DNA of 64,000 nucleotides from an uncultured Pseudomonadales bacterium (GCA_964648715.1 CAZYNM010000007.1:1436-65435); one strand, 5' to 3'; counted from the first letter of the stretch, positions 45,294-59,740 are shown. The notes: a model not told the origin generated them from the sequence alone. Numbers and translations: made by a program.

Positions 45294-46028
45294 TCACATG
45301 TTATTTTTCTTTTGTGCCAAAACCAACAGAGACGATCCTAGCGGGAGTGAAATAAAGCGAATACTATATGCTTCTAGTTTACACAAAAATAGGAAGATTA
45401 TTTCTAATAAAGGAGATATGGTGGGTATAACTGAGGCATGTCCTGTAGAGTGATGCAGTACTTTTCTTGTGAAAAAAACAAAGGGAAAAAGTGAAAAAAA
45501 TATATATGTTTTACGCAAGACAACAAAACCATGTTTTTCGAGAATTGTAGACATTTCTTCCAGAGTGAATCTTTGACGGGCGTGCATGACCGTGTCGTGG
45601 TGACTCCACAATTGTGGTAGTGCAGAATCTGTAATAATAATGTTTCCCTTTGGTTTAAGCACCCTTGAAAATTGTGCCACTATCTCGTCTATCTTGACTT
45701 TTTTATGATATAGCACATCAAAGCATGTTATGAGTGAAAAACTGTGCGGTGCAAATGGCAGTCTATTAGCATCTGCCTGTATGACTGCAAGGCCTCTTTT
45801 TTTTGCAACGGTACATGCAAACTGATTACGTTCAATTGCTTGTACAGTGCCAAATTTTTGCAAAAAAAGTGTAATGCCTCCTGTACCACAGCCAACATCT
45901 AATATTTTTTGTTTATTTGATGGGTCACGTAATAATTTCAAAAATGTCTCAATATACATTTTCTTTGCTTTGAACCACCAGTAGTTTTGATCAATTATAG
46001 CCAGTTTTTTATATTCATGATCTTCCAT
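45294..46028 (-). CDS. Class I SAM-dependent methyltransferase
   Basis: KILDVGCGTGGITLFLQKFG motif I; ...PKGNIIITD. An upstream ATG at 46061 is an alternative start. Confidence 0.75.
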   Translation of the reverse strand: MEDHEYKKLAIIDQNYWWFKAKKMYIETFLKLLRDPSNKQKILDVGCGTGGITLFLQKFGTVQAIERNQFACTVAKKRGLAVIQADANRLPFAPHSFSLITCFDVLYHKKVKIDEIVAQFSRVLKPKGNIIITDSALPQLWSHHDTVMHARQRFTLEEMSTILEKHGFVVLRKTYIFFSLFPFVFFTRKVLHHSTGHASVIPTISPLLEIIFLFLCKLEAYSIRFISLPLGSSLLVLAQKKNNM

Positions 46029-46066
46029 ATCTGTGCTATCCTCTATTCCATTACTACACATGTATC

Positions 46067-47602
46067 ATGCATAACAAATTATTAAAAGTATTGATTGTTA
46101 GTACCATAGCATTTTTAGTTATATTTGTTCAACATTTCCCCAATCTGTACGCATCTTGGTATACACCAGAAGGATATACGTATAATTACCAAGCCTCATG
46201 GTTTGACCCGTGGGATGTAAACGTGTATGTTACTGCTATTCGTAATGGTCAAGAAGGCAACATCTTGCTTAAAAACCATTACAATAGTATCCCACAATGG
46301 CGTCCTTCATTCATTTATCCCCTTTATACACTTGCTGGGCATTTAAGTCACGCCAACCCCTACCTTATTTTTCATACCTTGGCCATAATAGTTAGCTGTT
46401 TGACGACAGTTGTTGTCTTTACTTGTTATCAACATGTATTTGGCACATATAAATTAGCTGTGTTAGCTACGATTGTATGTTTGTTGGGCGGAGGTGTGGG
46501 TGCGCTACTTGGTAAAACAGATATCTCTGCTGCCTCACAAATAACAAGTTTTAATTTTCAAAGTGCTACCCAGCGAGCGCATGAAGGCATTGGGGTTACA
46601 ATTTATATTGTTGCTCTCATGACTACATTTTATTACTATGAGGGTAAGAAAACTAAACAAGCTGCTGCAGTTATTATTGGGTCACTATTGGTGGGTGTTG
46701 TTTTTTATCCATACAATATACTCAGCTATTTACTAATTACTTTTATCTACCTTTATCTTAAACTACGGGTCTTTAATGTACGCCCGTATGCTCTTTTATT
46801 TACTGTTGCTAGTATCGTGGGTACCGCAACACTTATTTATTATTTTCACTTACACAGTACTACATTCAGTGCCGCTGCATCTGAAAATCTGCCGAATGTG
46901 CCAATTACAAGCATGCTTATTGGATATGGTGGCTTCATCTCTTTTTTTGTACTACATACTTTTATTGAGAAAAGTACTTTTACAGCTGATCATAAAAAGA
47001 TGAGGTTATTCTTGATCCTGTGGGTTTCGATTTCTATAGTTCTTTCATACCTACCAGGACTGGGTTTCTCACGTTTTTATTTACGTGGTTTATTTTTTCC
47101 GCTCACAGGTCTGATGTTTTTATATTTGTTGTACACTAAGAATCACGTCATTAGATACTTTTTAACGACTTTTTCTATCATACTTTTATTGTCTTCAAGA
47201 CTGAACATTTTTATACTGAGAATGGAGGAAGTTAAAGGGACAAACCCATGGCTTTATACCCATAATGACGTAATTGACGCATTGGATTTTTTGAAGACTC
47301 GATCTGAAGATGGTGTTATAAGTCATAACTATCCAATTTCAAACTTTATACCAGCCTATACAGGAAAGCGCGTGTATGTGGGTCATATGCTTCAGACACC
47401 ACATGCTGCGGAAAGAATAGCATTACTTACTGATTTTTATTTGGGAAAGTTTTCTGAAGAAGAAGCTGCACTGTTTTTAAAATCTAATAATATTACGTTT
47501 GTTATTTACTCTGATCACTTTGCTGGTGACACAGTTCCAACGTACAGTTTCCTGAAAAACGTATTTAAAAATAGGACGGTTCAGATCTTTACTTCAAACT
47601 AA
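46067..47602 (+). CDS. Large polytopic membrane protein with C-terminal soluble domain (GT-C-like glycosyltransferase candidate)
   Basis: 511 aa, more than 10 predicted TM helices, then a ~120-aa soluble C-terminus. No catalytic motif confidently identified. Confidence 0.5.
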   Translation: MHNKLLKVLIVSTIAFLVIFVQHFPNLYASWYTPEGYTYNYQASWFDPWDVNVYVTAIRNGQEGNILLKNHYNSIPQWRPSFIYPLYTLAGHLSHANPYLIFHTLAIIVSCLTTVVVFTCYQHVFGTYKLAVLATIVCLLGGGVGALLGKTDISAASQITSFNFQSATQRAHEGIGVTIYIVALMTTFYYYEGKKTKQAAAVIIGSLLVGVVFYPYNILSYLLITFIYLYLKLRVFNVRPYALLFTVASIVGTATLIYYFHLHSTTFSAAASENLPNVPITSMLIGYGGFISFFVLHTFIEKSTFTADHKKMRLFLILWVSISIVLSYLPGLGFSRFYLRGLFFPLTGLMFLYLLYTKNHVIRYFLTTFSIILLLSSRLNIFILRMEEVKGTNPWLYTHNDVIDALDFLKTRSEDGVISHNYPISNFIPAYTGKRVYVGHMLQTPHAAERIALLTDFYLGKFSEEEAALFLKSNNITFVIYSDHFAGDTVPTYSFLKNVFKNRTVQIFTSN

Positions 47603-47704
47603 AAACATGGCATATACTCTACACTTGCAGCGGATCTTGTATAGATAGCACATGACTGATAAATCTGCTATCTTGAGTATATTGACACTGATGCGTGAAT
47701 TTGT

Positions 47705-48772
47705 ATGTCAGAGAGAAATAGTCCCAATTTGTCATATAGCAAAGCTGTAGATTCTACACCTCGAGAAACAGTTTTTTTATTCTTATCGAGACTGCAAGTA
47801 AAATTACGAGCAGTTTTTCAGGGTAGTGACGCTCATGATGCAACTAGTTTAGTGGCAGATTCCCAACTCCCGTTGGCAGATGTGCATGAACTAGAACGAG
47901 TACTAATCGATCCAGCTACTGGTCGAGTAAGAAGTGAGTTCAACTTTTCTGAAGATGCAAGAAAAATAGTTGAGCAGTTTCCAGGGGTTGAGTTCGTTGG
48001 AGCGGGAAATGAACATGTTGTTGTTCGCATGCATGAAACAAGACCTGATCAGATAATTAAGTATCAAAAAGAAAGGGCACGGTATTTTGAGACTTCACCT
48101 TTAGAAACAATAGAGGTCTATCATCTGCATAAATTACTTCACATGCTTCTCCCTGATAGCTTTCCCGATATCTATGCCACAAGATCAGGTTTAGACGTCA
48201 TTAAATCAAGATGGATGTATGTTGAAAAGGCGAAGCCAGAACAATTTAGCGAAGAAAAACGTCAACTCCAAGAGGATGTCCATTCAATTAGTTCCAGAAT
48301 TGATGAACAGATACAGGAACTAGGAATTCAGCTTGGGTTTTTTAACACCAATAGGGTTGCCTTTGATGCAAGTAAACGAGAAAATTTTATTGTAGATACG
48401 GAAGGTAAACTAAAATACATAGATAGACTGACAATTGGCCCTCAACCAATACGGCTTGATTTCTTACGACTTAACTCAGTGATCCATTCATTAAATAATC
48501 CTACGTTACAATTGAAAATTGTACGGCATCTACTGTCAATTATTGAACTAGAGGTTGTTAAGTATGCTTGGATTCATGCTATTTCACCTGATTCCAATGA
48601 ATTTGCTATGCTACGAGGAGATCTAGATAATAAATCTTGGAATTTGGTCCAGAAATATGCTCGTCGTGCGTTTTATGGTAACTTTAAACGTGATGATTTT
48701 TATTTTTGTAAAGAGAATGTGGTACAGAGACAACCATTTACACTTACAAGTGGCATAGCAATTCCCAACTAA
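47705..48772 (+). CDS. Hypothetical protein, possible atypical kinase-like fold
   Basis: 355 aa. ...AFDASKRENFIVDTEGKLKYIDRL... resembles a D..(K/R)..N catalytic loop plus DFG-like IDR of protein-kinase-like phosphotransferases; weak. Confidence 0.4.
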   Translation: MSERNSPNLSYSKAVDSTPRETVFLFLSRLQVKLRAVFQGSDAHDATSLVADSQLPLADVHELERVLIDPATGRVRSEFNFSEDARKIVEQFPGVEFVGAGNEHVVVRMHETRPDQIIKYQKERARYFETSPLETIEVYHLHKLLHMLLPDSFPDIYATRSGLDVIKSRWMYVEKAKPEQFSEEKRQLQEDVHSISSRIDEQIQELGIQLGFFNTNRVAFDASKRENFIVDTEGKLKYIDRLTIGPQPIRLDFLRLNSVIHSLNNPTLQLKIVRHLLSIIELEVVKYAWIHAISPDSNEFAMLRGDLDNKSWNLVQKYARRAFYGNFKRDDFYFCKENVVQRQPFTLTSGIAIPN

Positions 48773-48778
48773 ATTTGG

Positions 48779-48805
48779 TCAGCCACTTGGCCAGTGGTTG
48801 GAGCC
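48779..48805 (+). repeat. Degenerate tRNA 3'-end (T-arm + acceptor) remnant R1
   Basis: TCAGCCACTTGGCCAGTGGTTGGAGCC is similar to R2/R3 and to the 3' end of tRNA-Lys as read on the plus strand (TGAGCCAGCTGGGACTCGAACCCAGG). Confidence 0.5.
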
Positions 48806-48850
48806 TCTTTTGCTGAGTATCACAATCGTGATGTGATGAGAAATTCGATA

Positions 48851-49189
48851 TTATTCGATAATTGATTGAGGATATAAAGCACATGCTTGATTTTGAAGTG
48901 CCTTAATATTCGCTTTATTTAACTTAGGTTGATATTTGTAAATAATGGGTATAACTAGCTTATTTACTCCTGAGTTCTCTACAGTTTCCATACATCTAAT
49001 AGATTTACTGAAGATTGTTTTGCCTATATTACAACTTATTTCTATTGAGGGCATGGTTCCGTTCCTTAGCTGTTCCCTCATTCCATCTTGCGCATCCAGG
49101 TAGCAATGACTTAGAGAAGCTTCAGTAGTTTTATAGGTAATACCTAACCCAACTAGCAAAATGATAGTTATTACAAAAAGTATTTTCAT
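48851..49189 (-). CDS. Small secreted Cys-containing protein (112 aa)
   Basis: Signal peptide MKILFVITIILLVGLGITY...; 4 Cys; lies between remnants R1 and R2. Confidence 0.45.
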   Translation of the reverse strand: MKILFVITIILLVGLGITYKTTEASLSHCYLDAQDGMREQLRNGTMPSIEISCNIGKTIFSKSIRCMETVENSGVNKLVIPIIYKYQPKLNKANIKALQNQACALYPQSIIE

Positions 49190-49277
49190 ATAAATAATAC
49201 TATATGCTTTTTGATTTGATGTACATGGGTTGGATTAGTATATGCTGCATTTAAATATAAATTAGCTCTAAAATCAG

Positions 49278-49306
49278 TGAGCCACTTGGTCGGTGGGTGG
49301 AACACC
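49278..49306 (+). repeat. Degenerate tRNA 3'-end remnant R2
   Basis: TGAGCCACTTGGTCGGTGGGTGGAACACC: pseudo T-arm (GGTG-GGTGGAA-CACC) plus acceptor-like GAGCCA. Confidence 0.5.
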
Positions 49307-49519
49307 TGTTGAATAGTGTGGTTGAACTTCATTTAAAACTCATAGATCTAGAAGGAAAACATTGACGAGTATTGTAGAAGCACTCGGCACAGGTATCAAG
49401 CTGAGGTTAGTCTAGCAACTATGTAAAAGAAATAGTCTTTTACATAGAAGAATAGTTATCTGTGTAATGATTACTGCCATCAACAAATTGAGAATAAGAT
49501 TGACAATCTGTCAGATACA

Positions 49520-50173
49520 TTAAAACGCAATATTCTTTACCTCAGTAATCATTCTTGATTTAATTACGTCCCAATTTACATCTTTGATCATTCTAGGCAT
49601 CGGTTGAACTTCAGCATCTTCAAAATAAACGAGCGATTTTAAGATATGTGCTTGATTGTAGTCCACAGCCGAATACTTAGTCTTTGCTTTCTCAAGTAAC
49701 TCTGGCAATGAATATATCTCAAATAAAAAGTACAAATCTACAAAATCTTTTTTACTGCCGCGCATACTGACGGTTTGTAGCTTAGTGCAGGCAATATCAA
49801 GAATTGAACTGAGTTGCGTACCATGCCAGATATTCAAAGGTTCTAGCAAAGGATATCGATACTCCAGAAACTGAAGTTTGACACCATCAACATAGGTATT
49901 TACTGTTCCTGTAGCAAGTTCGGTGTTGCTGAGTTGTCCAAGTAACGCAATGTCCTTTTCTAATTGCAAGGTGTTGAAAGCTTCAGAATTAAAAAAGTCT
50001 AAATCTTCTGACTCACGATGCCCTATTTGTAGTGAAAGTCCAGTTCCACCAGATAAATAAAAAGACTTTAGAAATTCTGGCTGTGATTGATTAATTTTCT
50101 CGACAAGTTGTGCTGTTTTGGCAGGAAGTGTATTGGGGTAAAATGTGGCGTTCATGATAAATAAATCCGCCAA
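49520..50173 (-). CDS. AbiEii/AbiGii-family nucleotidyltransferase toxin (type IV TA)
   Basis: LSGGTGLSLQIGHRESEDLDFF matches the GGTAL...R.S.D.D signature of PF08843. Confidence 0.65.
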   Translation of the reverse strand: MADLFIMNATFYPNTLPAKTAQLVEKINQSQPEFLKSFYLSGGTGLSLQIGHRESEDLDFFNSEAFNTLQLEKDIALLGQLSNTELATGTVNTYVDGVKLQFLEYRYPLLEPLNIWHGTQLSSILDIACTKLQTVSMRGSKKDFVDLYFLFEIYSLPELLEKAKTKYSAVDYNQAHILKSLVYFEDAEVQPMPRMIKDVNWDVIKSRMITEVKNIAF

Positions 50174-50385
50174 AAATTACTTGATTTGGGTTGTAATTTT
50201 AATTGTGGAAGTAAGTTCTGAAGTTCGACTCTACTTGTCTGCTTAAAAAGCCATTTGAGTGCTTCAGTATTGCCTTTTTCAAGTAAAGTTTGGATGATGT
50301 ATTTTTTGTGTTGAGACCAATCTAATTCATTTAGACTATCACCCCAAAAATAGGTTTGCAATTGTGTCGGAATTTGTACCTTCAT
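50152..50385 (-). CDS. Small upstream partner of the AbiEii-like toxin (putative antitoxin)
   Basis: 77-aa ORF overlapping the toxin start by 22 nt in the operon position of abiEi; no HTH recognised. Confidence 0.35.
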   Translation of the reverse strand: MKVQIPTQLQTYFWGDSLNELDWSQHKKYIIQTLLEKGNTEALKWLFKQTSRVELQNLLPQLKLQPKSSNFWRIYLS

Positions 50386-50502
50386 TGACTCGTATTATAC
50401 CAAATTTGGTTGGTATTTTCTTGTTTAAAAAGTGTTTTCTTAACTACAGCCATCTGGTTCTGGAACACAGTCCAGGCTGAAAACTGAATAAAATGGGAAC
50501 TG

Positions 50503-50571
50503 CGAGAAAGAATATAAAATCTCCAGAGGAAACCAAAATTTGTGAGCCACTTGGTCGGTGTGTGGAACACC
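50503..50571 (+). repeat. 47-bp direct repeat copy A (att-like) fused to tRNA 3'-end remnant R3
   Basis: CGAGAAAGAATATAAAATCTCCAGAGGAAACCAAAATTTGTGAGCCA matches 55671..55717 with 3 mismatches in 47. It continues into the pseudo T-arm CTTGGTCGGTGTGTGGAACACC. Confidence 0.65.
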
Positions 50572-50659
50572 TTTTCGATAGTATAATCAAATTATATAGT
50601 AAACTTGTGGTTACGAATTTATAAATCAACAGTAGGTGGTGAAAGAAGTTCACATACAA

Positions 50660-52237
50660 CTACTGGGAAGCCAGTGCACGTGTAACAGAATGTGCCGTAG
50701 ATTTACTCTGTCCAATACCTGGCAGATCTTCGCTACATAGTTGAACTGTGTGAACAGAATCAATACTTTCTGCAATCAAATCGAATTGTTCTAAAAATGT
50801 CATATCCTCCTCAGTGAGGATACCCAAAAGTATATATTCTTGCACACTACTATTTTCACTAAAATGCTTTTTGAGATTTACAAGCTGTTGGATTTGTACA
50901 TCTACAACAATATCTGGTTGAAAAGTAGCAATAGCTTGTTGTGCATCCATGTTCAGAACAACTCCGTCAGTGTCAGACGATTCAAGATTACTCTCTGCAG
51001 CAATATATACGCACGGTACTCGACGAGCTTTGAGCTCATCGCTTATAAACCGAGAAAATTTACCATGACCGGCAGTAACTTCAAGAATGATAATTTCTTC
51101 ATGACCTGGTCGGACTAGTTCTCCTACTCTCTTCTCAATATAATCCGCCATTGCTGTCACCAGTTCCTGACTTATTACTTCATGAACATCATATAGTTTG
51201 CATATCAGATCCCACTCAGCTACTGCTAATTGATATTTACTGTCACTGAGTTGCGTCCCAATCCTGTGTTCTTTTCTCCACAATTCAAAATAGGACTTAA
51301 TTTCTGCAAGCGAAGGCAGCACATCAATTCTGCACAGGGGATTTAAGCTATCATGTAATTCATATCGACGTTGAAACTCAGAGTTGGCTAATGGAGAACT
51401 CTGCATAGAGACATCTGCATAGTATTCGGATTGGTGTCTATCGCATTGGGCAACAATAGCTGACCCGTCTTCCTGATCAGCTAGCCAATGTTCCAGTTCA
51501 TCCCAATCATTAATGCCAGTTATCGATGCTAATCTATCGTAATCAATATCAAGCTCCGGAGCAGTGAGGTGCTGTGAAAAATCGATGTTCGACTCAGCAA
51601 ATGTTTCAAGTCCAAGTTCATCGATAAAGTACTGCAGAACTTGCTCATACTCAGCTGGAGCTGCGACTTCTTCAATATTTCCCTTAATATACATTGCAAC
51701 CTCACTGGCTGAAAAGAAAAACATTTGTTCCATCCACTCAGTCGCAAAACAATTTTTGATAGTTTTTCTCCAGCAATCTTTTGTTTGGGCTCCGACAGCG
51801 AGTTTGTATCTCAGAACTCTTTTAACACCATAAATAATGTCTGCAACTGTAATGGGTTTTTCAAGATCAAGTAAAAACAATGTATCTGGTCGCGACTCAA
51901 AACCTGATGGTTTGATAACCTCACCTTGAGACGATAAAAAATAGGCTTCAAGATTATACTTTGGTTCCTGAAAAAGATATGCATTGTAATTTGCAACATC
52001 AGTTTCCACCCACTGAACTGGTTTGTCACTGTCAATTTGCGGAAAGGTTACGCCCAAAGGAACTACAACATCAAGGTCTTGTGCAGTCGCGGTGTGATAT
52101 ATCGTATCAAGTACCGTTGAACCTGCTATGTAGTATAAGCCTGGGGGCTCACTGTACTGCAATGTTTTAGTATCAATTTTCGCGCCCTCTTTAGAGAAAG
52201 TTTCGGTTTCACGGCCAAGCTCTAGTTGTTGTGTCAT
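50660..52237 (-). CDS. Hypothetical 525-aa protein, possible C-terminal Rossmann/methyltransferase-like domain
   Basis: Divergent from the MoxR gene. C-terminal IIILEVTAGHGKFS ... YIAAE ... DIVVDV loosely resembles class-I MTase motifs I/II/IV; the N-terminal ~380 aa are unknown. Confidence 0.45.
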   Translation of the reverse strand: MTQQLELGRETETFSKEGAKIDTKTLQYSEPPGLYYIAGSTVLDTIYHTATAQDLDVVVPLGVTFPQIDSDKPVQWVETDVANYNAYLFQEPKYNLEAYFLSSQGEVIKPSGFESRPDTLFLLDLEKPITVADIIYGVKRVLRYKLAVGAQTKDCWRKTIKNCFATEWMEQMFFFSASEVAMYIKGNIEEVAAPAEYEQVLQYFIDELGLETFAESNIDFSQHLTAPELDIDYDRLASITGINDWDELEHWLADQEDGSAIVAQCDRHQSEYYADVSMQSSPLANSEFQRRYELHDSLNPLCRIDVLPSLAEIKSYFELWRKEHRIGTQLSDSKYQLAVAEWDLICKLYDVHEVISQELVTAMADYIEKRVGELVRPGHEEIIILEVTAGHGKFSRFISDELKARRVPCVYIAAESNLESSDTDGVVLNMDAQQAIATFQPDIVVDVQIQQLVNLKKHFSENSSVQEYILLGILTEEDMTFLEQFDLIAESIDSVHTVQLCSEDLPGIGQSKSTAHSVTRALASQ

Positions 52238-52456
52238 ACTATTTTAGTTTACAATCTTAAAAAGATACACGATACATTCAAAAGTTATAAATATTTTTTA
52301 TGAGCGAAGAATCTGAAAAGAAAAAAATTATCTGGAATAAGGCTGGTAGCGATGAACAAAAACAGGCGATCAGAACTACCTTTGAGCGATATTTTGTTGC
52401 ACTTGCTCAAGCTCGACTTCGCCTACTACAAATAGCTCAAAAGAAGAACAACAAAG

Positions 52457-53917
52457 ATGCATGAACCAAAGTCTGAGGGATCACATGAATTCAATGTAGC
52501 TGACCTACTTGTTGGGATGACAACAGAGGCAAGGAAGCAATTAGCAGACCTGCTTATTTTGATCCAAGAACAAAAAGAAACCAACAGAGATGATTCCGCC
52601 ACATTAGCCCAGATAGAAGGTATTAAATCTGATATTGAGCATGCTACTGCTGAACTTCCAATTAGACTTGAACGAGACCAGGAACCATATTTAGCTGATC
52701 CCGAACTTGCGGAATTGTTGGATGACTGTTATGCACTTGGAAAACCTGTAATGCTTATTGGAGAGCCAGGTACCGGTAAAACTGCCGCTGCATACGCATA
52801 TGCAGCAGAACATGGGATGCAAGTTATCGATCTACAATGTAGAGAATCTGTGGATGCCAGTGAAGCTTTATATTCTATTAGATATCTGGACAAGTGGTCA
52901 GATGCACAATCGGGTACTGCTCAAGCTGGTTATGATAACTACATACAGTTAGGCCCTATAGGTCAAGCATTCATGTCTGATGAACCAGTTGTGTTATTGA
53001 TTGATGAAGCAGATAAGTTGGCTGAGGGTGGTCCTGATGCTTGGCTAAGAGCGTTTGAAGATTTTGCGTTTGTAATAAATGAAGGCAGACCTACATCTGG
53101 AGTTACTGAAAAAGTATCTGCAGAACAACGAATAGTTAAAGCAAAGCACAAGCCATTAATTATTATTACCTCTAACGGTATGCGTGACTTTTCTTCTGCA
53201 TTTCTTCGACGATGTGGGAGGTATTCAATACCATTCCCAGATTCTGAAAAACTTAAAGATATTGTGAAGTTGCATATACCGGATATGGAGACGCAACTAC
53301 TTGATAACATCATCTCAGAATTTATGCGCATCCGTGAAACTGAGGGATTAAAACACAAGCCATCGCCAGCAGAGTTGCTTGATTGGATTCGAGTTTTGCG
53401 TCGGAGAGGTGTTAGTGATGTCTCTCAGGGAAATTTAGAAGCACTCCACTTCTTGATCAAAGAAGAATCAGATATGCAACTGTTTGACATGAGTAAAGTT
53501 TCGCCTGAAGTATTGCATAAATCAGGTATGCCAATTGAAGTTGTGCATGCTATCAATGGCAGACATTTGGTGCAACTCAACAGTGCGCAACCAAAGGATT
53601 TACTACTGCAGTTATATAGAAAAAAAATAAAGTTCTCTGGTACCGCCACATATAGTGACCCATTGTTTATCCAGGAACCAGGTTGTCATACCGTTATAGG
53701 TAGCAACGATATGCGGTGGTATATCGTTACACCAGCAGTTCTCACTGTTTTGAACGAATGTAACGCGGTCGGTATGACTATGCGTTCGATTAATGAAGAC
53801 GAATTACCAGAAGTTACTGACTTTGTAAAAGCAAATAAGTACTTTCAACTCGTGAAGTTGGTAGATGGAAATTCGGCATACATCCGTAATGGAAAAGCCG
53901 TAATTATTCCTAGGTAA
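52457..53917 (+). CDS. MoxR-family AAA+ ATPase with ~90-aa N-terminal and ~170-aa C-terminal extensions
   Basis: Walker A LIGEPGTGKTAAA, MoxR-type VIDLQCRESVDASEALYSIRY, Walker B VVLLIDEADK, sensor/Arg AFLRRCGRY. 486 aa, longer than the typical ~300-aa MoxR. Confidence 0.75.
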   Translation: MHEPKSEGSHEFNVADLLVGMTTEARKQLADLLILIQEQKETNRDDSATLAQIEGIKSDIEHATAELPIRLERDQEPYLADPELAELLDDCYALGKPVMLIGEPGTGKTAAAYAYAAEHGMQVIDLQCRESVDASEALYSIRYLDKWSDAQSGTAQAGYDNYIQLGPIGQAFMSDEPVVLLIDEADKLAEGGPDAWLRAFEDFAFVINEGRPTSGVTEKVSAEQRIVKAKHKPLIIITSNGMRDFSSAFLRRCGRYSIPFPDSEKLKDIVKLHIPDMETQLLDNIISEFMRIRETEGLKHKPSPAELLDWIRVLRRRGVSDVSQGNLEALHFLIKEESDMQLFDMSKVSPEVLHKSGMPIEVVHAINGRHLVQLNSAQPKDLLLQLYRKKIKFSGTATYSDPLFIQEPGCHTVIGSNDMRWYIVTPAVLTVLNECNAVGMTMRSINEDELPEVTDFVKANKYFQLVKLVDGNSAYIRNGKAVIIPR

Positions 53918-53923
53918 TGTACT

Positions 53924-55597
53924 ATGTTTGAACATCTGTCTCCAGTAGGTTCTCAATTAAACAAGGGTAAACCTCAATTAATTGAGCTAGCTGCAGTATT
54001 AGGTGAAGTCCTACCCAAACAAGAAACTGAATTTGATCGTCTTCAAGACTTTTTTGAATGTTTACGAGCAAGCGGCATTCCCGTGAGTATGGCAGAATGG
54101 CTTGATGTTCAGAGACTACTTACAATGGGAAGAATAACTACACTGACTGAAATGCATTTCAAATGTCGAGCTTTTTTGGTCAAGGATGCCCGCTATGATG
54201 CGCTCTATGACCAAGTTTTTAAGAAAGTATTTCTACAGGAAGTTATAGATCATAGAAAAAGTGAGGAAATGTACTTTGATCAAGAATCTGTGAGTGAAGA
54301 AGAAAGACAGGCTGCAGAGCTTGAACAAATGCTTGATCAAAACAGGCCAGCAAGTGTAAGTGAGTTATCAGCGTTACAAACCAAAATAAATGAAATTACT
54401 CGGAAAATGGAGAAAATTAAAAGTTTGTATGTAACTCCAACGAATGACTTGAATGAGGTTGTTCAGTATCGGCGTGGTCAAATTTTGCCAACAAGTGAAG
54501 GTATGGGACGAAGATATCAAAGAGTAGAAAAATTCATGCATGGGCGTTGGTGGGAATCGCACCCAGAAGTTGATTCTGATTCTAGCTACACTGTTTCGCA
54601 TGTAGATTTTCAAGAAATGCAGCCTGCTGATTATGAGCAAATGCGAATGTTTGATTCATTATCAAAAAAACTAAATAAGAGAGCTGAACAAATAAAATCG
54701 GCACTCTCTCCCCTCTCAAAATTACAGCAACAGGTGAAACAAGTAATGAATGGTGATACTCCAATGCCATCACACCAAGAGGGCGGAAATGGTAATCCTG
54801 CAGATGGTTCTGTGCAGATGGATCGTTCCGCACAAATTAATTTAGATCTAGGACAGTTTAGTGGTGCGTTCGGTACAAGCCATGAGGAAATGGTTCAAAT
54901 CCTAGATAGGATTGAAGAAGGCACTTGGCTGGACAGTGAGACAGATAGAGTTTTAACCCCCGATCAAGTTAAGAAAGCATTAGAGAAATTAAAGAAAAAA
55001 TTTACAAATTATAGCCGAATTAAAACTTCTCGACTTGATATAAAAAAATCAGTTCTACGATCTTCAAAGAAACCTGGGCTTCCTGAGCTCGTTTACAAAT
55101 CTGAAGTACTTAAAGAGAAGCCCAACATTATACTTTTGGCAGATGTCAGTGGCAGTGTCCACCAGTTGATTCCACTCATGCGTTCTGTCGTTGAAGGTTT
55201 AAGTTCAGTGACCAATATGGTTGGTACTTTTTATTTTTTTGATAAAGTTGAGCAAGATGTCTACAGTGATGAAGGATTGAGTAGTAAACAAGATATTATT
55301 ACGGTCCTTCAAGAAAATAAGCAATCGTTAGTTTTGATCTATGGCGATACTTTATTCAAATCACAAGGTGATGATGATGAAGCATTTAAACTTCTTGGAA
55401 AAATTAAATCGAATTCTAAATCAGTAGTGTGGCTACAACCAAATATTGAAATATTTAACGCCAATAATTCTGGTGCTATAGACTATGATGATCCTGGTTA
55501 TGCGATGACATATGGCTTCGTTAGAAAGATAATTGATATCTTTCCACTCACATTTAATGGCTTACTTGATGCTGCTGAGCGGCTTCTGCGAAAATAA
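53924..55597 (+). CDS. VWA-domain protein (CoxE-like) partner of the MoxR ATPase
   Basis: C-terminal VWA with MIDAS ILLADVSGSVHQ (DxSxS); long N-terminal region. 6 nt downstream of the MoxR gene. Confidence 0.7.
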   Translation: MFEHLSPVGSQLNKGKPQLIELAAVLGEVLPKQETEFDRLQDFFECLRASGIPVSMAEWLDVQRLLTMGRITTLTEMHFKCRAFLVKDARYDALYDQVFKKVFLQEVIDHRKSEEMYFDQESVSEEERQAAELEQMLDQNRPASVSELSALQTKINEITRKMEKIKSLYVTPTNDLNEVVQYRRGQILPTSEGMGRRYQRVEKFMHGRWWESHPEVDSDSSYTVSHVDFQEMQPADYEQMRMFDSLSKKLNKRAEQIKSALSPLSKLQQQVKQVMNGDTPMPSHQEGGNGNPADGSVQMDRSAQINLDLGQFSGAFGTSHEEMVQILDRIEEGTWLDSETDRVLTPDQVKKALEKLKKKFTNYSRIKTSRLDIKKSVLRSSKKPGLPELVYKSEVLKEKPNIILLADVSGSVHQLIPLMRSVVEGLSSVTNMVGTFYFFDKVEQDVYSDEGLSSKQDIITVLQENKQSLVLIYGDTLFKSQGDDDEAFKLLGKIKSNSKSVVWLQPNIEIFNANNSGAIDYDDPGYAMTYGFVRKIIDIFPLTFNGLLDAAERLLRK

Positions 55598-55670
55598 AGA
55601 ATGTTGATATAACAGTAAATAATACAACATACTGTTTAGTACTTTGTAGCATGTGATCAAATGTAAACTA

Positions 55671-55717
55671 CGAGAAAGAATATAGAATCTCCAGAGGAAA
55701 TCAAAATATGTGAGCCA
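55671..55717 (+). repeat. 47-bp direct repeat copy B (spans 3' flank and last 7 nt of tRNA-Lys)
   Basis: CGAGAAAGAATATAGAATCTCCAGAGGAAATCAAAATATGTGAGCCA; see copy A. Confidence 0.65.
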
Positions 55718-55784
55718 GCTGGGACTCGAACCCAGGACACTTTGCTTAAGAGGCAAATGCTCTAACCAACTGAGCTACTGGCCC
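55711..55784 (-). tRNA. tRNA-Lys(CTT)
   Basis: Minus strand: GGGCCAG-TA-GCTC-AGTTGGTTA-GAGC-A-TTTGC-CTCTTAA-GCAAA-GTGTC-CTGGG-TTCGAGT-CCCAG-CTGGCTC-A. 74 nt, no CCA. Confidence 0.85.
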
Positions 55785-55878
55785 TCACACGAACTAGTAT
55801 TATACCTCAAGATTACATTGAGAGCGAACACTTATTTCACTTTCTTGCAGTCTAGTCAAGATTGAGTAATACTGAAGT

Positions 55879-57063
55879 ATGTCAGCTGTACATGAAGTAG
55901 CTCAACAGACACATGAACACGTACCCTCTCCTCTGGCTTTCAGTTACCCCATAGATGCATTTTTGCACCAGACCATACAGAACCTGGGAAAACAATTGGA
56001 AATAAACCCAGATGCGTTGGGTTGTCAAAACGTCTCATTTTGTCGTGGGGCTGTAAACTACATCCTCAAAGAAATCAAACAGGGCCCTGAGTTTTTTGAA
56101 GTGACTGCAGAACTGGAAAGTTTGGCAGGCGAGCTGGGAAACACGCCAGCAGCTCTTCGTTTTTTCTATTCTTTAGAATTGTATATTTACTATCAGCACG
56201 AGGTGGTGCGACATACAGAAAATAGAATATGTGAATTTTTACAAGTACTTACCTTTGCTGAGTTGAGCTTACTGGGTCCACTTTTGAGTGAGTTCCTGAC
56301 AGATGTCCCAACTCAAGAGGCAGATAAAAGATATTCTTTTTTACGGGATTTTTTTGCCAATGACTCTGCAGATTTCACAGCAACACTTGATGGGCTACAG
56401 ATGAAAAAGAATGAATACATTTTCCTACTTAATACACCACTCTTCACTGCGTTTCTTAAACCGCTTACTCGTCTACAGCCTGCCTTTGCGTATGAACTTG
56501 CACAGATTGTAAATGGATGTCAGGACGTTCACCTGAGAGAAGAAACTGAAAAAGCACTTATGCCAGTTGAGACACATTGGCGGATAAAACTCACACCTTC
56601 ACATGATGACTGGTATTTGTGTGAGCGGAGCGAAGAAAAGTTGGTAGATACACTCTCAGAACAAGGATGTCTAGCGCTGCTAGATGCAGCACAACGACCA
56701 CTTATTGTGGTTAAATTTAAAGGTAAACCATCTGGACTGGTACTACAAACATGTAAAACTGCTGATGGAACTGTGTTACCTGCAGGTACCTGGATTTCTC
56801 CTGTCAGTGCTCAAACTCGAGAACGTTTATACAAGGCATTTGACACAAACTATCAAAAAGTGAGTACACCAGTTTTCCATGGCACTTGGGCGTATATGCG
56901 TAGTGTAGTCCCAGACCGTCTGGAACAGAATGGAGCGCTCCTTACACTTACTAATATAGCGACTCAGCTACAGAGAAGAAGTGCCTATATTGGCCAGCAC
57001 CCTCGTTTCTCTCCAGACAGACAAGCATACCGTCTCAGATATAAAGAAGAAATGGGTGCTTAA
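55879..57063 (+). CDS. Hypothetical protein (394 aa)
   Basis: Long ORF between tRNA-Lys and tRNA-Arg; no recognisable motif. Confidence 0.45.
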   Translation: MSAVHEVAQQTHEHVPSPLAFSYPIDAFLHQTIQNLGKQLEINPDALGCQNVSFCRGAVNYILKEIKQGPEFFEVTAELESLAGELGNTPAALRFFYSLELYIYYQHEVVRHTENRICEFLQVLTFAELSLLGPLLSEFLTDVPTQEADKRYSFLRDFFANDSADFTATLDGLQMKKNEYIFLLNTPLFTAFLKPLTRLQPAFAYELAQIVNGCQDVHLREETEKALMPVETHWRIKLTPSHDDWYLCERSEEKLVDTLSEQGCLALLDAAQRPLIVVKFKGKPSGLVLQTCKTADGTVLPAGTWISPVSAQTRERLYKAFDTNYQKVSTPVFHGTWAYMRSVVPDRLEQNGALLTLTNIATQLQRRSAYIGQHPRFSPDRQAYRLRYKEEMGA

Positions 57064-57073
57064 GGTGACTCGG

Positions 57074-57147
57074 TGCACCCAGAGGGAATTGAACCCCCAA
57101 CCTTCTGTTCCGAAGACAGACGCTCTATCCAATTGAGCTATGGGTGC
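57074..57147 (-). tRNA. tRNA-Arg(TCG)
   Basis: Minus strand: GCACCCA-TA-GCTC-AATTGGATA-GAGC-G-TCTGT-CTTCGGA-ACAGA-AGGTT-GGGGG-TTCAATT-CCCTC-TGGGTGC-A. 74 nt. Confidence 0.8.
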
Positions 57148-57214
57148 GCACCGCTATTATACCTCAAAAAGTCCTCTTTTATTCCCTTCATCCAGTGCTA
57201 CAATACTTGAGAAG

Positions 57215-57901
57215 ATGGCAGCACGATATTACGATTTGGTTAATAAAGCATTACACTGGGGAACATTGCGCGAGTATTTACGAGAAAAGTTTGGTCTCAC
57301 TGAAGATTCTTTTATTAGTCCGTTTATCACTGTGGCCCGTGAGCCAGGAAGTGGTGGCGCCCCCATTGCACAAGCAGTTGCTCAAAAATTAGGCTTTGAG
57401 TATGTTGATGAACAAATTGTGGATGAAATTGCACGCTCCACCAAGCGTCGCAGAGCAATCATACAAGAAATAGATGAAAAAAGTCGATCACGTATTGAAG
57501 ATATTGTGCATTCTTTGGTTAATCTCGAGTATATTGATGAAGAGACATATATTTCTGAGCTAGTCAAAGTTATCCTGAGTTATGCACATAAAGGGAAGTG
57601 TGTTATTTTAGGCAGGGGTGCCAACTTTATCACTCCTTTCGCCAAAGGGTTGCATGTAAGTATCACTGCTCCATATGAGATTCGTGTGCAGAGAGCTATG
57701 CACTACGAGGGTTTATCTGAATCCCAAGCCAAGGAAGTCATCGCGAAGGTTGAAGAAGAACGTGACGAGTTTGCTCGTCAATACTTTAGAAGAAGCTTGA
57801 AGCATCGCAATGTCTTTGATATGACAATAAACACTACGTACTTTAATGTTCCTCAGTCAAGTCAAATTATTTGTGAAGCGTTTAAACAGAAGTTCCCATA
57901 A
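57215..57901 (+). CDS. Cytidylate-kinase-like family protein (PF13189-like P-loop protein)
   Basis: ITVAREPGSGGAPIAQAVAQKLGFEYVD is a CMPK-like P-loop. Start at MAARYY; the longer listed ORF overlaps tRNA-Arg. Confidence 0.65.
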   Translation: MAARYYDLVNKALHWGTLREYLREKFGLTEDSFISPFITVAREPGSGGAPIAQAVAQKLGFEYVDEQIVDEIARSTKRRRAIIQEIDEKSRSRIEDIVHSLVNLEYIDEETYISELVKVILSYAHKGKCVILGRGANFITPFAKGLHVSITAPYEIRVQRAMHYEGLSESQAKEVIAKVEEERDEFARQYFRRSLKHRNVFDMTINTTYFNVPQSSQIICEAFKQKFP

Positions 57902-57920
57902 TCTTTCCGTATAATTTTCA

Positions 57921-57939
57921 TTTTTTTTGCGGTACAATA
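57921..57939 (+). promoter_or_regulatory. Candidate tRNA promoter: T-tract + GCGG + TACAAT (-10-like)
   Basis: TTTTTTTTGCGGTACAATA, 12 nt upstream of tRNA-Leu(CAG). Near-identical to the motif at 58057. Confidence 0.45.
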
Positions 57940-57950
57940 CCCCCTGTGTT

Positions 57951-58037
57951 GCCGAAGTGGCGAAACTGGTAGACGCGCACGCTTCAGGAGCGTGTGGGTT
58001 CACCCCCATGGAGGTTCGAGTCCTCTCTTCGGCACCA
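57951..58037 (+). tRNA. tRNA-Leu(CAG)
   Basis: GCCGAAG...CACGC-TTCAGGA-GCGTG, long variable arm, GGAGG-TTCGAGT-CCTCT, CTTCGGC-A-CCA (CCA encoded). 87 nt. Confidence 0.85.
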
Positions 58038-58056
58038 GAGATCTTTGAAACAACTC

Positions 58057-58075
58057 TTTTTTTTGCGGTATAATA
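58057..58075 (+). promoter_or_regulatory. Candidate tRNA promoter: T-tract + GCGG + TATAAT
   Basis: TTTTTTTTGCGGTATAATA, 14 nt upstream of tRNA-Leu(GAG). Confidence 0.5.
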
Positions 58076-58088
58076 AGCATGAAAATAT

Positions 58089-58169
58089 GCCCGGGTGGTG
58101 AAATGGTATACACGTACGCTTGAGGTGCGTATGCCGAAAGGTGTGGAGGTTCAAGTCCTCTCCCGGGCA
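58089..58169 (+). tRNA. tRNA-Leu(GAG)
   Basis: GCCCGGG...TACGC-TTGAGGT-GCGTA, variable arm TGCCGAAAGGTGT, GGAGG-TTCAAGT-CCTCT, CCCGGGC-A. 81 nt. Confidence 0.8.
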
Positions 58170-58193
58170 CTTAAATACTCTGTATGGCTATGC

Positions 58194-58267
58194 GGACGCT
58201 TAGCTCAGTTGGTTAGAGCACTGCGTTTACATCGCAGGTGTCGGGGGTTCGAGTCCCTCAGCGTCCA
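58194..58267 (+). tRNA. tRNA-Val(TAC)
   Basis: GGACGCT-TA-GCTC-AGTTGGTTA-GAGC-A-CTGCG-TTTACAT-CGCAG-GTGTC-GGGGG-TTCGAGT-CCCTC-AGCGTCC-A. 74 nt. Confidence 0.85.
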
Positions 58268-58282
58268 CTTCTTGGGCTAGCA

Positions 58283-59593
58283 ATGAAACAGTTTGTCTTT
58301 TGTATAGCACTATTTTTTTTGGGGAGCTTCTTCTTTCATTACATAGTCACTGGACAAGCCGTCTATGGCGACGGAGTTGGATACTACGCCTATCTCCACA
58401 GTTGGTACTTTGACCATGACTGGGATTCCACCAACGAATACAAACACATCTATACTCCAGAAAATAATAACGCGCTACAGCCGCACTCTGCAGCTGAAGT
58501 GCAGATTGTCCATACGACCCAGAGTGGCCGAGCACTAAACCATTTTAGTCCAGGGACAGCAGTGTTGCTTTTACCTTGGTACGTACTCGCCGACGTTATA
58601 GTACAGCTGCTGCCAGATAGTCTGCAGGTGGCACGATCTGGTTATGGTGATATCTACCAGATAAGCGTTGGGGTGGGAGCAGTGGTTTTTTTGGGTATGT
58701 CGGTGTGGTTGGTGATGCGTGTTCTTAAGCTCATTAGCGTACCACCATTCCTTTCATATTTGACTGTGCTTTTTATGTACCTGTGTACCCCACTGGTCTA
58801 TTATGGTGGGTTTGACGTTATCAATTCGCATGCTATCTCGGCATTATGTGCAGCTACTACGTTATATATATATACCGCTCTGCCACATACTCTCAAAAAA
58901 GTCTTGGTACTGGGATTGGTGGTAGGCTATGCAGCGAGTGTGCGAATTCAAGATGTATTCCTCGGTATCTTCGTTATTGCTGAAATCTATACTGCTGCGC
59001 CAAAATGGCAACGCACACTAGTCCTGTATGTGACTGCCATGGGTGCACTACTTGTTGGCATGCTTCCGCTCCTTCTCCAGCTAACTGTGGGTATTTCATT
59101 GGTGGAACATACCTACACACAGGAGCTGGTTCGCTGGTTTGCGGCTCCTACTCTGGCAGGTTTTTGGGGAAGTCTCTTGAATAGCGATACGGGTTTATTA
59201 GCAAGAACACCAGCCCTAGTTCCCTTTTGTATATTCCTGGTCGTTGCATTCAAAACAAAAAAAATTCCTTCTCGCTGGTATCCTTCTCTCATGTTTGCTG
59301 TTGCCCAATATGTGATTATCAGCATGCAAGGCGGCTGGGTTGCTGCTGCCTTTGGTGGGCGAATGTACATCTCTAGTTTGATTGTGCTTACCCCTCTTGC
59401 TGCAGAGTTTGTCTCTATGGTGCGCACACGTTTTGGAATACAAGCAGTGACTGCCTTTGTGACGGTGTGTATTGTGGGTACTCTTGCGTCAGTGGGACAG
59501 TTTGTGCTGGTACGTAAAGCAACTGAGAATGGCACTATGGGAACTGAAGCCCGGACAGTTCAGCGCCTACAAAACTTCCTTAGGAAACAATAA
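58283..59593 (+). CDS. Polytopic membrane protein (GT-C-like / unknown), 436 aa
   Basis: Start MKQFVFCIALFFLG; more than 10 hydrophobic helices. The listed ORF start overlaps tRNA-Val. Confidence 0.5.
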   Translation: MKQFVFCIALFFLGSFFFHYIVTGQAVYGDGVGYYAYLHSWYFDHDWDSTNEYKHIYTPENNNALQPHSAAEVQIVHTTQSGRALNHFSPGTAVLLLPWYVLADVIVQLLPDSLQVARSGYGDIYQISVGVGAVVFLGMSVWLVMRVLKLISVPPFLSYLTVLFMYLCTPLVYYGGFDVINSHAISALCAATTLYIYTALPHTLKKVLVLGLVVGYAASVRIQDVFLGIFVIAEIYTAAPKWQRTLVLYVTAMGALLVGMLPLLLQLTVGISLVEHTYTQELVRWFAAPTLAGFWGSLLNSDTGLLARTPALVPFCIFLVVAFKTKKIPSRWYPSLMFAVAQYVIISMQGGWVAAAFGGRMYISSLIVLTPLAAEFVSMVRTRFGIQAVTAFVTVCIVGTLASVGQFVLVRKATENGTMGTEARTVQRLQNFLRKQ

Positions 59594-59667
59594 TCTGGCT
59601 ACATTCCCCACTGGGAAGTGAAAGAGAAGATGATATAATTTGGGGGTTAGTAATGGTCTGTGCACTT

Positions 59668-59740
59668 GCCAAGCTAGCCAAGGTGGTCACGGCGCGTGTC
59701 TGAAAAACACGAGATTGAGGTTCGACTCCTCAGCTTGGCA
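59668..59740 (+). tRNA. tRNA-Phe(GAA)
   Basis: GCCAAGC-TA-GCC...-CGTGT-CTGAAAA-ACACG-AGAT-TGAGG-TTCGACT-CCTCA-GCTTGGC-A. 73 nt. Confidence 0.8.

Follow-up and report, generated by a model that had tools for sequence, protein, structure and literature searches.

On balance, the 6.9 kb downstream of the tRNA-Lys(CTT) gene of this Patescibacteria bacterium probably constitute a tandem array of integrase-less, CIME-like remnants left by successive site-specific integrations. [quoted passage not shown] An initial annotation had proposed serial integration at this gene, and this part of it still holds; its view of the remnants as progressively decayed tRNA 3' halves has to be given up. All positions below refer to the window, i.e., the whole 64-kb stretch of DNA that was analysed.

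The tRNA-Lys(CTT) gene is intact, as annotated, and is located on the minus strand at 55710-55784 (called by ARAGORN; Rfam tRNA, 71.8 bits). A 27-nt pattern of this tRNA was recovered without differences in the only close relative (L001) and at 21 other Patescibacteria loci. The annotated 47-bp direct repeat (50503-50549 and 55671-55717) was likewise confirmed with exactly 3 mismatches and forms part of a longer match, in which 55656-55722 and 50488-50554 are 87% identical over 67 nt. Its tRNA-proximal copy (55656-55722, minus strand) consists of a core O (~55698-55722), whose tRNA part is the last 13 nt of the tRNA-Lys (55710-55722), and a trailer F (55656-55709), such that 54 of the 67 nt fall in the trailer and the remainder in the tRNA. 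The other copy belongs to a hybrid site, c3 (50488-50605, minus strand), composed of arm X3 (50555-50605), core O (~50530-50554) and trailer F' (50488-50540). Its arm resembles copies c2 and c1, and its trailer resembles that of the tRNA (repeat families D1, D2 and D3). Copy c2 (49266-49340, minus strand; families D1 and D3) contains arm X2 and core O without an F-like trailer. The most diverged copy, c1 (48767-48820, minus strand; family D1), contains arm X1 and core O (GTCAGCCA) and overlaps the stop codon of a convergent 355-aa ORF. The direct repeat family formed by these three copies, starting at 48767, 49266 and 50531, extends over 54 nt with 69-72% identity to the reference copy. Every copy is direct and lies on the tRNA strand, with the series beginning at the tRNA 3' end.

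Single-sequence nhmmer searches against the whole 64-kb window linked c3 to the tRNA flank (E=1.2e-9), to c2 (E=2.3e-8) and to c1 (E=3.3e-4), and c2 to c1 (E=2.4e-3). The next-best matches in the window had E>1, and the similarities among the copies are thus far above chance. Both the repeat comparison and nhmmer showed that the likeness of the copies drops with distance from the tRNA. The initial annotation had suggested looking for additional repeat copies; none were found beyond the four sites in the rest of the window, including behind other genes, and neither further copies nor related att copies were present in the viral and metagenome collections searched.

The repeats are mosaics. The sole part common to all four sites is the ~25-bp core, made up of the last 13 nt of the tRNA-Lys and ~12 nt of trailer, with 64-84% identity in every pair (20 of 25 positions between c1 and c3). 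The arm X beside the core (~31-50 bp) is 61-81% identical among c1-c3 and 32-35% identical to the tRNA body, which corresponds to background; in its part nearest the core, c3 agrees with c2 at 25 of 31 positions and with c1 at 19 of 31. Trailer F (48 bp) is conserved between the tRNA and c3 only (38/48, 79%), compared to 23-31% elsewhere, and the c2 trailer matches it at a background level of 12-14 of 48 positions. In total, c3 and the tRNA locus have 11 of the 13 nt of the tRNA 3' end and 54 nt of trailer in common. Only 8-9 tRNA-derived nt are found in c2 and c1, and because this part is so short, both are connected to the tRNA only transitively, via c3. Such a pattern of identities is predicted by tandem site-specific integration of related elements, for which the arrangement tRNA-O-P'(A)...P(A)-O-P'(B)...P(B)-O-P'(C)...P(C)-O-B' would be expected. 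Judging from the sequences, arm X is best read as a putative element-borne att (attP) arm and trailer F as the other arm.

The initial annotation described three copies of a tRNA 3' end, each comprising a pseudo T-arm and a GAGCCA acceptor. Direct copies do occur at these places, but only 8-13 nt of each match the tRNA; GAGCCA is present at 49279 and 50544, whereas 48780 reads CAGCCA. The pseudo T-arm did not withstand comparison, as the flank is 32-35% identical to the T-arm region of the tRNA (10-11 of 31 positions), i.e., background, and no Rfam tRNA match was obtained at E<=10; a tRNA pseudogene or fragment was therefore rejected. Copies c2 and c3 do contain GGTG-TTCCAC(A/C)-CACC, which is loosely T-arm-like and is followed by GTGGCTCAC(A), a match to the 3' strand of the tRNA-Lys acceptor. 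However, 7 or 8 extra bases separate this hairpin from the acceptor-like segment, the Rfam covariance model remained silent throughout 48600-50700, and ARAGORN called no pseudo-tRNA at the copies. It is thus very improbable that the copies represent actual decayed tRNA genes or 3' halves, whether of the tRNA-Lys or of other tRNAs. Derivation from distinct functional tRNAs, which the initial annotation had named as a case that would speak against its proposal, was not observed either, as a better match was not given by any of the nine tRNAs in the window. The copies are 61-81% alike and yet resemble the tRNA-Lys body only at background level, a combination that tRNA halves decaying independently could not yield.

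The three modules between the repeats are compositional outliers, with a GC content of 0.33-0.39 versus 0.44-0.45 in the backbone and tetranucleotide distances of 0.24-0.33 versus 0.11-0.14. Module A (50555-55709, 5.2 kb, GC 0.389) encodes a 525-aa two-domain protein (50660-52237, minus strand) whose C-terminal part is methyltransferase-like and which has relatives at the domain level only, an AAA ATPase (52457-53917, plus strand; Pfam) and a VWA_CoxE protein (53924-55597, plus strand; Pfam) without any homologue above 28% identity among 5.8e9 proteins. Weak NCBIfam matches in this module were MadB-like and MadC-like. Module B (49290-50487, ~1.2 kb, GC 0.357) encodes an AbiEii-like nucleotidyltransferase toxin (49520-50173, minus strand; PF08843, E=1.6e-14; PADLOC AbiEii) and a small DUF6922 protein (50152-50385, minus strand; Pfam PF21956, E=1.7e-10). 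The AbiE pair assigned earlier is accordingly correct for the toxin, but its partner is the DUF6922 protein rather than AbiEi. Together, the two genes form a toxin-antitoxin-like pair, a passenger type typical of mobile elements. Module C (48791-49265, 0.5 kb, GC 0.326) contains a single listed ORF (48851-49189, minus strand) for an exported-looking 112-aa protein with a hydrophobic N-terminal segment and no match in Pfam, PADLOC or PHROG. It had been annotated as a secreted Cys-rich protein; however, it has only 4 cysteines. Most module genes are orphans, and three proteins located in or beside the array, two of them cargo, have zero or one homologue among the 5.8e9 proteins: the VWA protein, the 355-aa protein (p355) and a 394-aa neighbour across the tRNA (p394), which has no family match and an unusable AlphaFold model (pLDDT 44). 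The modules are also unusually tidy for random decay, with intact genes and no pseudogene debris.

We infer that the repeats arose by recombination and that the three small modules A, B and C were acquired horizontally, by related elements integrating at the extreme tRNA 3' end. In each integration, the attP of the element (arm X, the ~25-bp core O and arm F) would have recombined with the core at the tRNA 3' end, so that the newcomer landed beside the tRNA and older modules were displaced outward. On this model, c1-c3 would be attR-type junctions (arm X plus core) and not decayed tRNA halves, since each newcomer inserts next to the tRNA. The 67-bp repeat would then be the junction pair of the youngest module, A, with its tRNA-proximal copy at 55656-55722 as the attL-type junction (tRNA-O-P' of module A), c3 as P(A)-O-P'(B), c2 as P(B)-O-P'(C) and c1 as the outermost junction. 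The proposed order of arrival is consistent with L001, which is 76% identical at the DNA level over 4.1 kb and whose contig stops 43 nt past the tRNA. F and F' differ at 4 sites; at 3 of these the F-like trailer of L001 has the base of F', and at none that of F, which is consistent with F' as the older copy and with A as the latest insertion.

The long trailer common to the tRNA and c3 alone, together with the 8-9 nt over which c2 and c1 match the tRNA, would also agree with a single event, in which only module A was truly inserted, by one integration or by homologous recombination. The copies c2 and c1 would then be local duplicates of a short intergenic sequence, e.g., a weak terminator or regulatory element ending minus-strand units. 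Indeed, each copy follows closely on the final gene of a minus-strand unit, c1 is scored as a hairpin resembling a terminator of the convergent 355-aa ORF, and low-GC DNA devoid of repeats is found beyond c1. We nevertheless regard a single event as unlikely. The folds of all copies, on both strands, are no better than those of shuffled sequences (z -1.5 to +0.9), the minus strand lacks a T-run straight after a stable stem, and no copies occur behind other genes in the 64 kb. Furthermore, arm X and the tRNA trailer meet in c3 exactly at the tRNA-derived core, a hybrid structure that is not expected from simple terminator duplication.

The modules contain no transfer genes and, according to Pfam, PHROGs, PADLOC and NCBIfam, no recombinase or integrase genes, and no recombinase domain was present in any ORF tested across the 64-kb window, where ORFs of at least 180 aa were taken outside the island. 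This agrees with the initial annotation, which had found no integrase or recombinase gene. No IntI-like or tyrosine recombinase was found in the 64 kb, including beside the tRNA, and in ten other Patescibacteria the ten ORFs examined next to this tRNA were likewise free of integrase domains. Pattern and protein scans of viral and metagenome collections for a cognate ICE or IME, as well as DNA searches against phages and plasmids, were empty or returned chance matches. As no module keeps a recombinase, the modules would now be immobile remnants, or could at most still be moved in a CIME-like manner by an integrase provided in trans.

The absence of both a resident integrase and pseudogene debris is, on the other hand, also what a still-active gene-capture platform would show, in which a recombinase from another locus would insert cassette-like modules ending in X-O sites at the tRNA-Lys 3' end. 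Such a platform would resemble an integron or Xer-dependent module array, and the tRNA end would act as attI. The modules are indeed intact, compact and tiny (0.5 and 1.2 kb), a single conserved site is found at the same end of each, and one of them is toxin-antitoxin-like, as is common in sedentary cassette arrays. However, the sites have no attC-like hairpin or significant single-strand fold, no recombinase of the IntI or any other type was found in the window, and related sites were not found in the viral and metagenome collections searched or at the 21 tRNA-Lys loci recovered. The progressive divergence of the sites (61-81%) is expected for decay rather than for maintained function. We therefore consider such a platform improbable. 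Slimmer still is the chance that the X-O sequences are live, non-hairpin sites of ~55-75 bp, forming an integron-like capture platform on a tRNA gene that is served in trans by a recombinase in a reduced-genome Patescibacteria bacterium. An integron array or CALIN in the strict sense was rejected, given the fold z-scores, the lack of IntI and the lack of a GTTRRRY/RYYYAAC pair on inspection by eye.

Atypical composition extends beyond the last repeat, over ~3.8 kb of low and ~3 kb of high GC. The low-GC block (44951-48772, GC 0.359; tetranucleotide distance 0.30-0.33 versus 0.11-0.14 in the backbone) encodes a methyltransferase (45294-46061, minus strand), a 511-aa membrane protein (46067-47602, plus strand) and p355 (47705-48772, plus strand), whose sole match among the 5.8e9 proteins is itself. 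No att-like repeat bounding 44951-48772 was found. Since foreign-looking DNA runs past c1, the repeats do not bound the whole variable region. At the 21 other Patescibacteria loci that the tRNA-Lys pattern retrieved, there was no synteny on the array side of the tRNA and no tRNA-end duplicate. Neither these loci nor L001, whose contig covers 43 nt past the tRNA, revealed an empty site or alternative occupancy. We counted against serial integration the absent integrase, the very short tRNA part, the lack of an observed empty site, the foreign DNA past c1 and the tidiness of the modules, and also the lack of tRNA-end duplicates or integrases at other Patescibacteria loci and of related att copies.

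The locus would be a fairly ordinary genomic-island scar. Foreign-looking gene blocks that each end in a copy of one short junction sequence are the customary trace of mobile DNA entering a single tRNA gene again and again, and tandem islands and CIME-like remnants at tDNAs are already well known. The ssrA islands of Dehalococcoides form tandem series of low-G+C islands behind a single tRNA-like gene. Short direct repeats of the target 3' end delimit each island, and next to every repeat is a conserved motif that derives from the element and not from the target. Many of these islands have no integration module, and cis-mobilization has been proposed for them (McMurdie et al. 2011, PMC3146451). 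The present array shares the tandem arrangement, the short 3'-end repeat, the conserved non-target motif, the low G+C content and the missing integration module. In contrast, the Dehalococcoides target is a tmRNA with insertion in the T-loop, whereas here it is the extreme 3' end and trailer of tRNA-Lys(CTT); many Dehalococcoides islands retain a serine-recombinase module, which none does here; and their variability is proven by multiple genomes, while the present array is known from one locus. CIMEs of the ICESt1/ICESt3 family in Streptococcus have lost integration and transfer genes and kept attL and attR. Their tandem arrangement at the target gene's 3' end results from newcomers using, as their own insertion site, the att site in which the gene ends (PMC5704250). 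The modules described here are similarly bounded by core O copies (attL/attR-type) and devoid of recombinase and transfer genes. However, the definition of a CIME refers to a known cognate ICE or IME with an integrase active on the CIME att sites, and no such cognate element was found here. Moreover, the host here belongs to the Patescibacteria, a group without established conjugative elements.

The tDNA islands identified by Islander have an intact tDNA at one boundary and a displaced direct 3'-end repeat at the other, and they can occur in tandem; Islander requires an integrase gene per island, and arrays of at least three are rare (4 of 3919 islands; PMC4383910). Here, the intact tRNA at the boundary, the tandem arrangement and the atypical composition are present, c3 is a candidate for the displaced repeat, to which c2 and c1 would be tied through c3, no integrase was found in the island, and the repeat is mostly trailer. 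The position of the identity block at the acceptor-stem 3' end resembles the asymmetric 3'-end sublocation of Williams 2002, in the form summarised in bioRxiv 10.1101/2020.11.02.365908. In the tycheposon islands of Prochlorococcus, repeated integration at the island tRNA displaces older elements outward, with degenerate elements and extra partial tRNAs scattered within (bioRxiv 10.1101/2020.12.28.424599). Repeated integration at one tRNA with outward displacement would be common to both systems, but tycheposons have their own tyrosine recombinases, replication modules and clear partial-tRNA repeats, which the present locus lacks.

Little is known about mobile elements and accessory-gene gain in Patescibacteria. 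Serial integration, if true, would imply that a sparsely sampled lineage of this group has repeatedly gained accessory genes in a site-specific manner at a single tRNA gene, namely a toxin-antitoxin-like pair, a trio of AAA, VWA and two-domain proteins, and a small exported-looking protein. Because the repeat consists of a putative element att arm and a core lying mostly in the tRNA trailer, tools that seek only tRNA fragments and an integrase would miss this array.

The intact tRNA-Lys(CTT) gene was called by ARAGORN and Rfam at 55710-55784 on the minus strand, so that lower coordinates lie downstream of it. It forms the edge of a 55.7-61.3 kb stretch that contains eight of the nine tRNAs in the window. 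On the downstream side, a repeat finder identified a three-copy family in direct orientation on the tRNA strand, with starts at 48767 (c1), 49266 (c2) and 50531 (c3, the copy closest to the tRNA). The family is 54 nt long at 69-72% identity to its reference copy, and c2 and c3 are 76% identical over 71 nt. The same method paired 50488-50554 with 55656-55722 as a 67-nt repeat of 87% identity. The initial annotation had reported three copies here, and this observation proved real, with coordinates accurate almost to the base; its 47-bp repeat with 3 mismatches is the central part of the 67-nt repeat. The GAGCCA motif that it had read in each copy is CAGCCA in c1. Single-sequence nhmmer queries against both strands of the complete 64-kb window linked c3 to the tRNA flank (E=1.2e-9), to c2 (E=2.3e-8) and to c1 (E=3.3e-4), and c2 to c1 (E=2.4e-3), with all other matches in the window at E>1. 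These values rule out chance as the origin of the similarity. Profiles made from the copies revealed no further family member in the 64 kb.

The four sites (c1-c3 and the tRNA locus) were aligned with the acceptor-strand motif as anchor, and identities were scored segment by segment. A core of ~25 nt (O), consisting of the last 13 nt of the tRNA and ~12 nt of A/T-rich trailer, is common to all sites, at 16-21/25 identities in every pair. The 31 nt that adjoin the core on the tRNA-body side (arm X) are shared by the three copies (25/31 for c3-c2, 19/31 for both c3-c1 and c2-c1), and match the real tRNA in only 10-11/31 positions, which is background. On the opposite side of the core, a 48-nt trailer (F) is shared by the tRNA locus and c3 only (38/48), the remaining pairs reaching 11-15/48. 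The four-site pattern is a clean mosaic. The c3 site is a hybrid: one flank of its core is the arm also present in c2 and c1, and the opposite flank is the tRNA trailer.

Serial integration of related elements at the tRNA-Lys end, leaving behind three modules (A next to the tRNA, then B, then C outermost), is the reading that we favor, at slightly better than even confidence. A chromosomal attB of the form tRNA-O-B' would recombine with an element attP of the form P-O-P', giving a proximal junction tRNA-O-P' and a distal junction P-O-B', where P and P' are the element arms and B' is the chromosomal flank. Related elements would then enter the regenerated tRNA end one after another, and the resulting array would read tRNA-O-P'(A)...P(A)-O-P'(B)...P(B)-O-P'(C)...P(C)-O-B'. 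From such a model one would expect a single core at four sites and an arm X (= P) that is foreign to the tRNA in the three distal sites, both as seen. It also predicts that trailer F (= P') occurs both at the tRNA site and at c3, provided that A and B are close relatives, and that similarity drops with age and distance, as seen. Judging by the common identity, the crossover would lie in or beside TGTGAGCCA, which is the acceptor stem's 3' strand. We infer the integration steps; neither a recombinase nor an excision product nor an empty site was seen.

The copies had been described as decayed tRNA halves that retain a T-arm. In local alignments to the nine window tRNAs, c2 and c3 reached at best a 13-nt match to the 3' end of tRNA-Lys, and c1 aligned best elsewhere than this end. 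The T-arm-like hairpin reads GGTG-TTCCAC(A/C)-CACC and is followed by 7-8 surplus bases before the acceptor-like GTGGCTCAC. ARAGORN called no pseudo-tRNA, and the Rfam tRNA covariance model was empty in 48600-50700 at E<=10 with permissive filters; the only Rfam matches in that search were two weak, irrelevant ones. Most tellingly, the copies are 61-81% identical to each other and at background relative to the presumed parent tRNA, a pattern that independent decay of T-arms could not yield. That c1-c3 are literal tRNA pseudogenes is therefore very improbable. Together with the segment identities, these results describe each repeat as a short core joined to an element arm. The proposal of serial integration at tRNA-Lys with no integrase present stands in outline, although unproven, and loses its T-arm detail.

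As DNA on either strand, no copy folded more stably than its dinucleotide shuffles (z -1.5 to +0.9), so that a structured RNA was rejected, and the result argues against integron attC sites as well. It also bears on a second explanation, in which module A would be the only insertion, c2 and c1 having arisen by local duplication of an intergenic element. The very few bases over which c2 and c1 match the tRNA, and the terminator-like look of c1, would suit such an origin. However, the copies do not fold, other genes are not followed by a copy, and the hybrid structure of c3 is precise; we regard this explanation as unlikely.

Under serial integration, the modules would be the inserted remnants. 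Module A (50555-55709) encodes a 525-aa protein on the minus strand, an AAA ATPase and a VWA_CoxE protein. The 525-aa protein combines an N-terminal domain of ~200 aa, found also in short proteins, with a methyltransferase-like C-terminal domain. The nearest named relatives of the ATPase and the VWA protein are the NCBIfam MadB (E=1e-31) and MadC (weak match) families, respectively, both far under the curated cut-offs; nothing relevant was found in the literature to explain these names. By eye, the N-terminal domain of the 525-aa protein has a nucleotidyltransferase-like GS...DLDVVV motif, and the module (50660-55597) resembles a three-gene system. Module B (about 49290-50487) encodes a DUF6922 protein (Pfam E=1.7e-10) and an AbiEii-like nucleotidyltransferase toxin (Pfam E=1.6e-14; PADLOC AbiEii), and module C (48791-49265) a single protein of 112 aa, which has four cysteines and begins with a hydrophobic segment. 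GC content was 0.326 in C, 0.357 in B and 0.389 in A, compared to 0.44-0.45 in the backbone, and the tetranucleotide distance to the backbone was 0.24-0.33, compared to 0.11-0.14 in ordinary 5-kb windows.

A third explanation is that the array is an active platform for gene capture, similar to an integron, on which a recombinase would act in trans. The striking smallness and tidiness of the modules, their cassette-like form and the toxin-antitoxin-like pair in one of them speak for it. Yet the sites are divergent and lack attC-type structure, and no recombinase was detected, which makes such a platform quite improbable. It would be the sole route to something more novel; otherwise, the locus is a further example of a well-known kind in an under-studied phylum.

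The search for a recombinase covered nearly all window ORFs of >=180 aa and selected smaller ones, using Pfam throughout and PHROGs, PADLOC or NCBIfam in addition for proteins without a Pfam match. No recombinase of any kind was found among these ORFs, in agreement with the earlier report that an integrase is missing, and the array contains no noncoding gap big enough for an integrase pseudogene. For p394, the 394-aa protein beside tRNA-Lys, there was no family match and the AlphaFold2 model was unusable (pLDDT 44). Lacking an integrase of their own, the modules would either be fixed in place as remnants or, like CIMEs, depend on an integrase supplied in trans.

To place the array among relatives, we note that the host is bacterial, since the window encodes UvrABC, enolase and LexA, and that the tRNA-Lys sequence and gene order put it among the Patescibacteria. 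The host lineage is very poorly sampled. Among 5.8e9 proteins, p394 had one homologue, and the VWA protein and p355 (a 355-aa ORF beyond c1) had none besides themselves; p394 had no match in contigs of species-representative genomes. Exact look-ups for the contexts of these three proteins returned only a 2.8-kb contig (L025) identical to the window. A contig with such identity is present in Logan run SRR14271365. The sole close relative is L001, a 4.1-kb contig from Logan SRR31212439 with 76% DNA identity to 55691-59814. Its genes and tRNAs are arranged in the same order, and it ends 43 nt past tRNA-Lys. These 43 nt are homologous to the trailer, matching F in 23/43 positions and F', the F-like trailer of c3, in 26/43, with F and F' themselves identical in 39/43. 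F and F' differ at four positions; L001 has the F' base at three of these and the F base at none. These three sites would fit, weakly, a scenario in which F' is the older sequence at tRNA-Lys and module A the latest arrival, bringing its own near-copy.

Upstream of tRNA-Lys, ~28 nt are identical between 55785-55812 and L001 119-146, in a region that is 76% identical overall. On the tRNA strand they read CTTGAGGTATAATACTAGTTCGTGTGAG, with a TATAAT box within, and probably represent the tRNA promoter. The p394 gene (55879-57063) is fast-evolving: its product is 61% identical to the L001 orthologue (352-1290), compared to 96% for the adjacent cytidylate-kinase-like protein. Scanning with a 27-nt tRNA-Lys pattern yielded 21 loci in Patescibacteria in which the 3' half of tRNA-Lys is the same. 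Linkage of tRNA-Lys to the cytidylate-kinase-like gene was often kept, and the trailers were unrelated to F. None of the 21 loci had an F-like trailer, a copy of X, a duplicate of the tRNA end or island-side synteny, and no integrase domain was found in the ten ORFs adjoining tRNA-Lys at ten of them. In one Patescibacteria relative (L020, oriented copy), 21 nt of the tRNA-Lys trailer are found again at 3399-3419 and 3459-3479, 60 nt apart and ~2.7 kb downstream of the tRNA, at 95% identity.

A search of viral and metagenome contigs for a source element yielded none. Neither a 22-nt X-core pattern nor an F-core pattern matched any viral contig, and these contigs encoded no relative of the AbiEii or AAA protein. 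DNA similarity of the region to phage or plasmid records was confined to the tRNA. The X-core pattern had two matches in metagenome contigs, both at the centre of the same unrelated 42-nt palindrome, CGCGTATTTTCAAGCCACTTGGTCGGTGGTTGGAAATACGCG (L002 3131-3172; L003 ~417-458, minus strand). Neither contig resembles the host lineage. Given that, by a rough estimate, ~1 chance match is expected at this database size, we rejected both, and they are probably coincidental. In L003, the palindrome lies near an ORF pair that looks transposase-like by eye.

The closest documented architecture is that of the Dehalococcoides ssrA islands, which stand in tandem with a 20-bp repeat of the target 3' end and, next to each repeat, a conserved 15-bp motif that is foreign to the target; 15 of these islands lack integration modules and were proposed to be cis-mobilizable (PMC3146451). 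CIMEs have lost their integration and transfer genes, keep attL and attR, and accrete in tandem at the 3' end of the target (PMC5704250). The array fits them in form, although their definition also ties them to a cognate integrase. By the Islander criteria (PMC4383910), the array lacks the required integrase and its tDNA fragment is marginal; by the membership criteria for integrons and CALINs, it is neither. Tycheposon-shaped islands of Prochlorococcus share the same outward-pushing logic. The inferred place of crossover corresponds to the asymmetric 3'-end sublocation known from earlier work on tDNA-targeting integrases (Williams 2002, as summarised in bioRxiv 10.1101/2020.11.02.365908).

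Anomalous composition runs on past c1. A low-GC block (44951-48772, GC 0.359) encodes a methyltransferase (PADLOC mad2, E=8e-13), a 511-aa multi-pass membrane protein and the orphan p355, in which a kinase-like ENFIVD...YID motif was seen by eye. It is abutted by a high-GC block (42001-44950, GC 0.524) with a TPP-enzyme-like protein, a 394-aa protein distinct in location from p394 and a PTP-like phosphatase, at a GC3 of 0.47-0.60 compared to 0.36-0.44 in backbone genes. No core copy above chance was found at the outer edges of either block. Considering that no att-like boundary of the low-GC block was found, the variable region exceeds the repeat array. The low-GC and high-GC blocks thus adjoin each other, both foreign-looking and of opposite composition. 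The 394-aa protein of the high-GC block has, by eye, a radical-SAM-like CxxCxxC motif.
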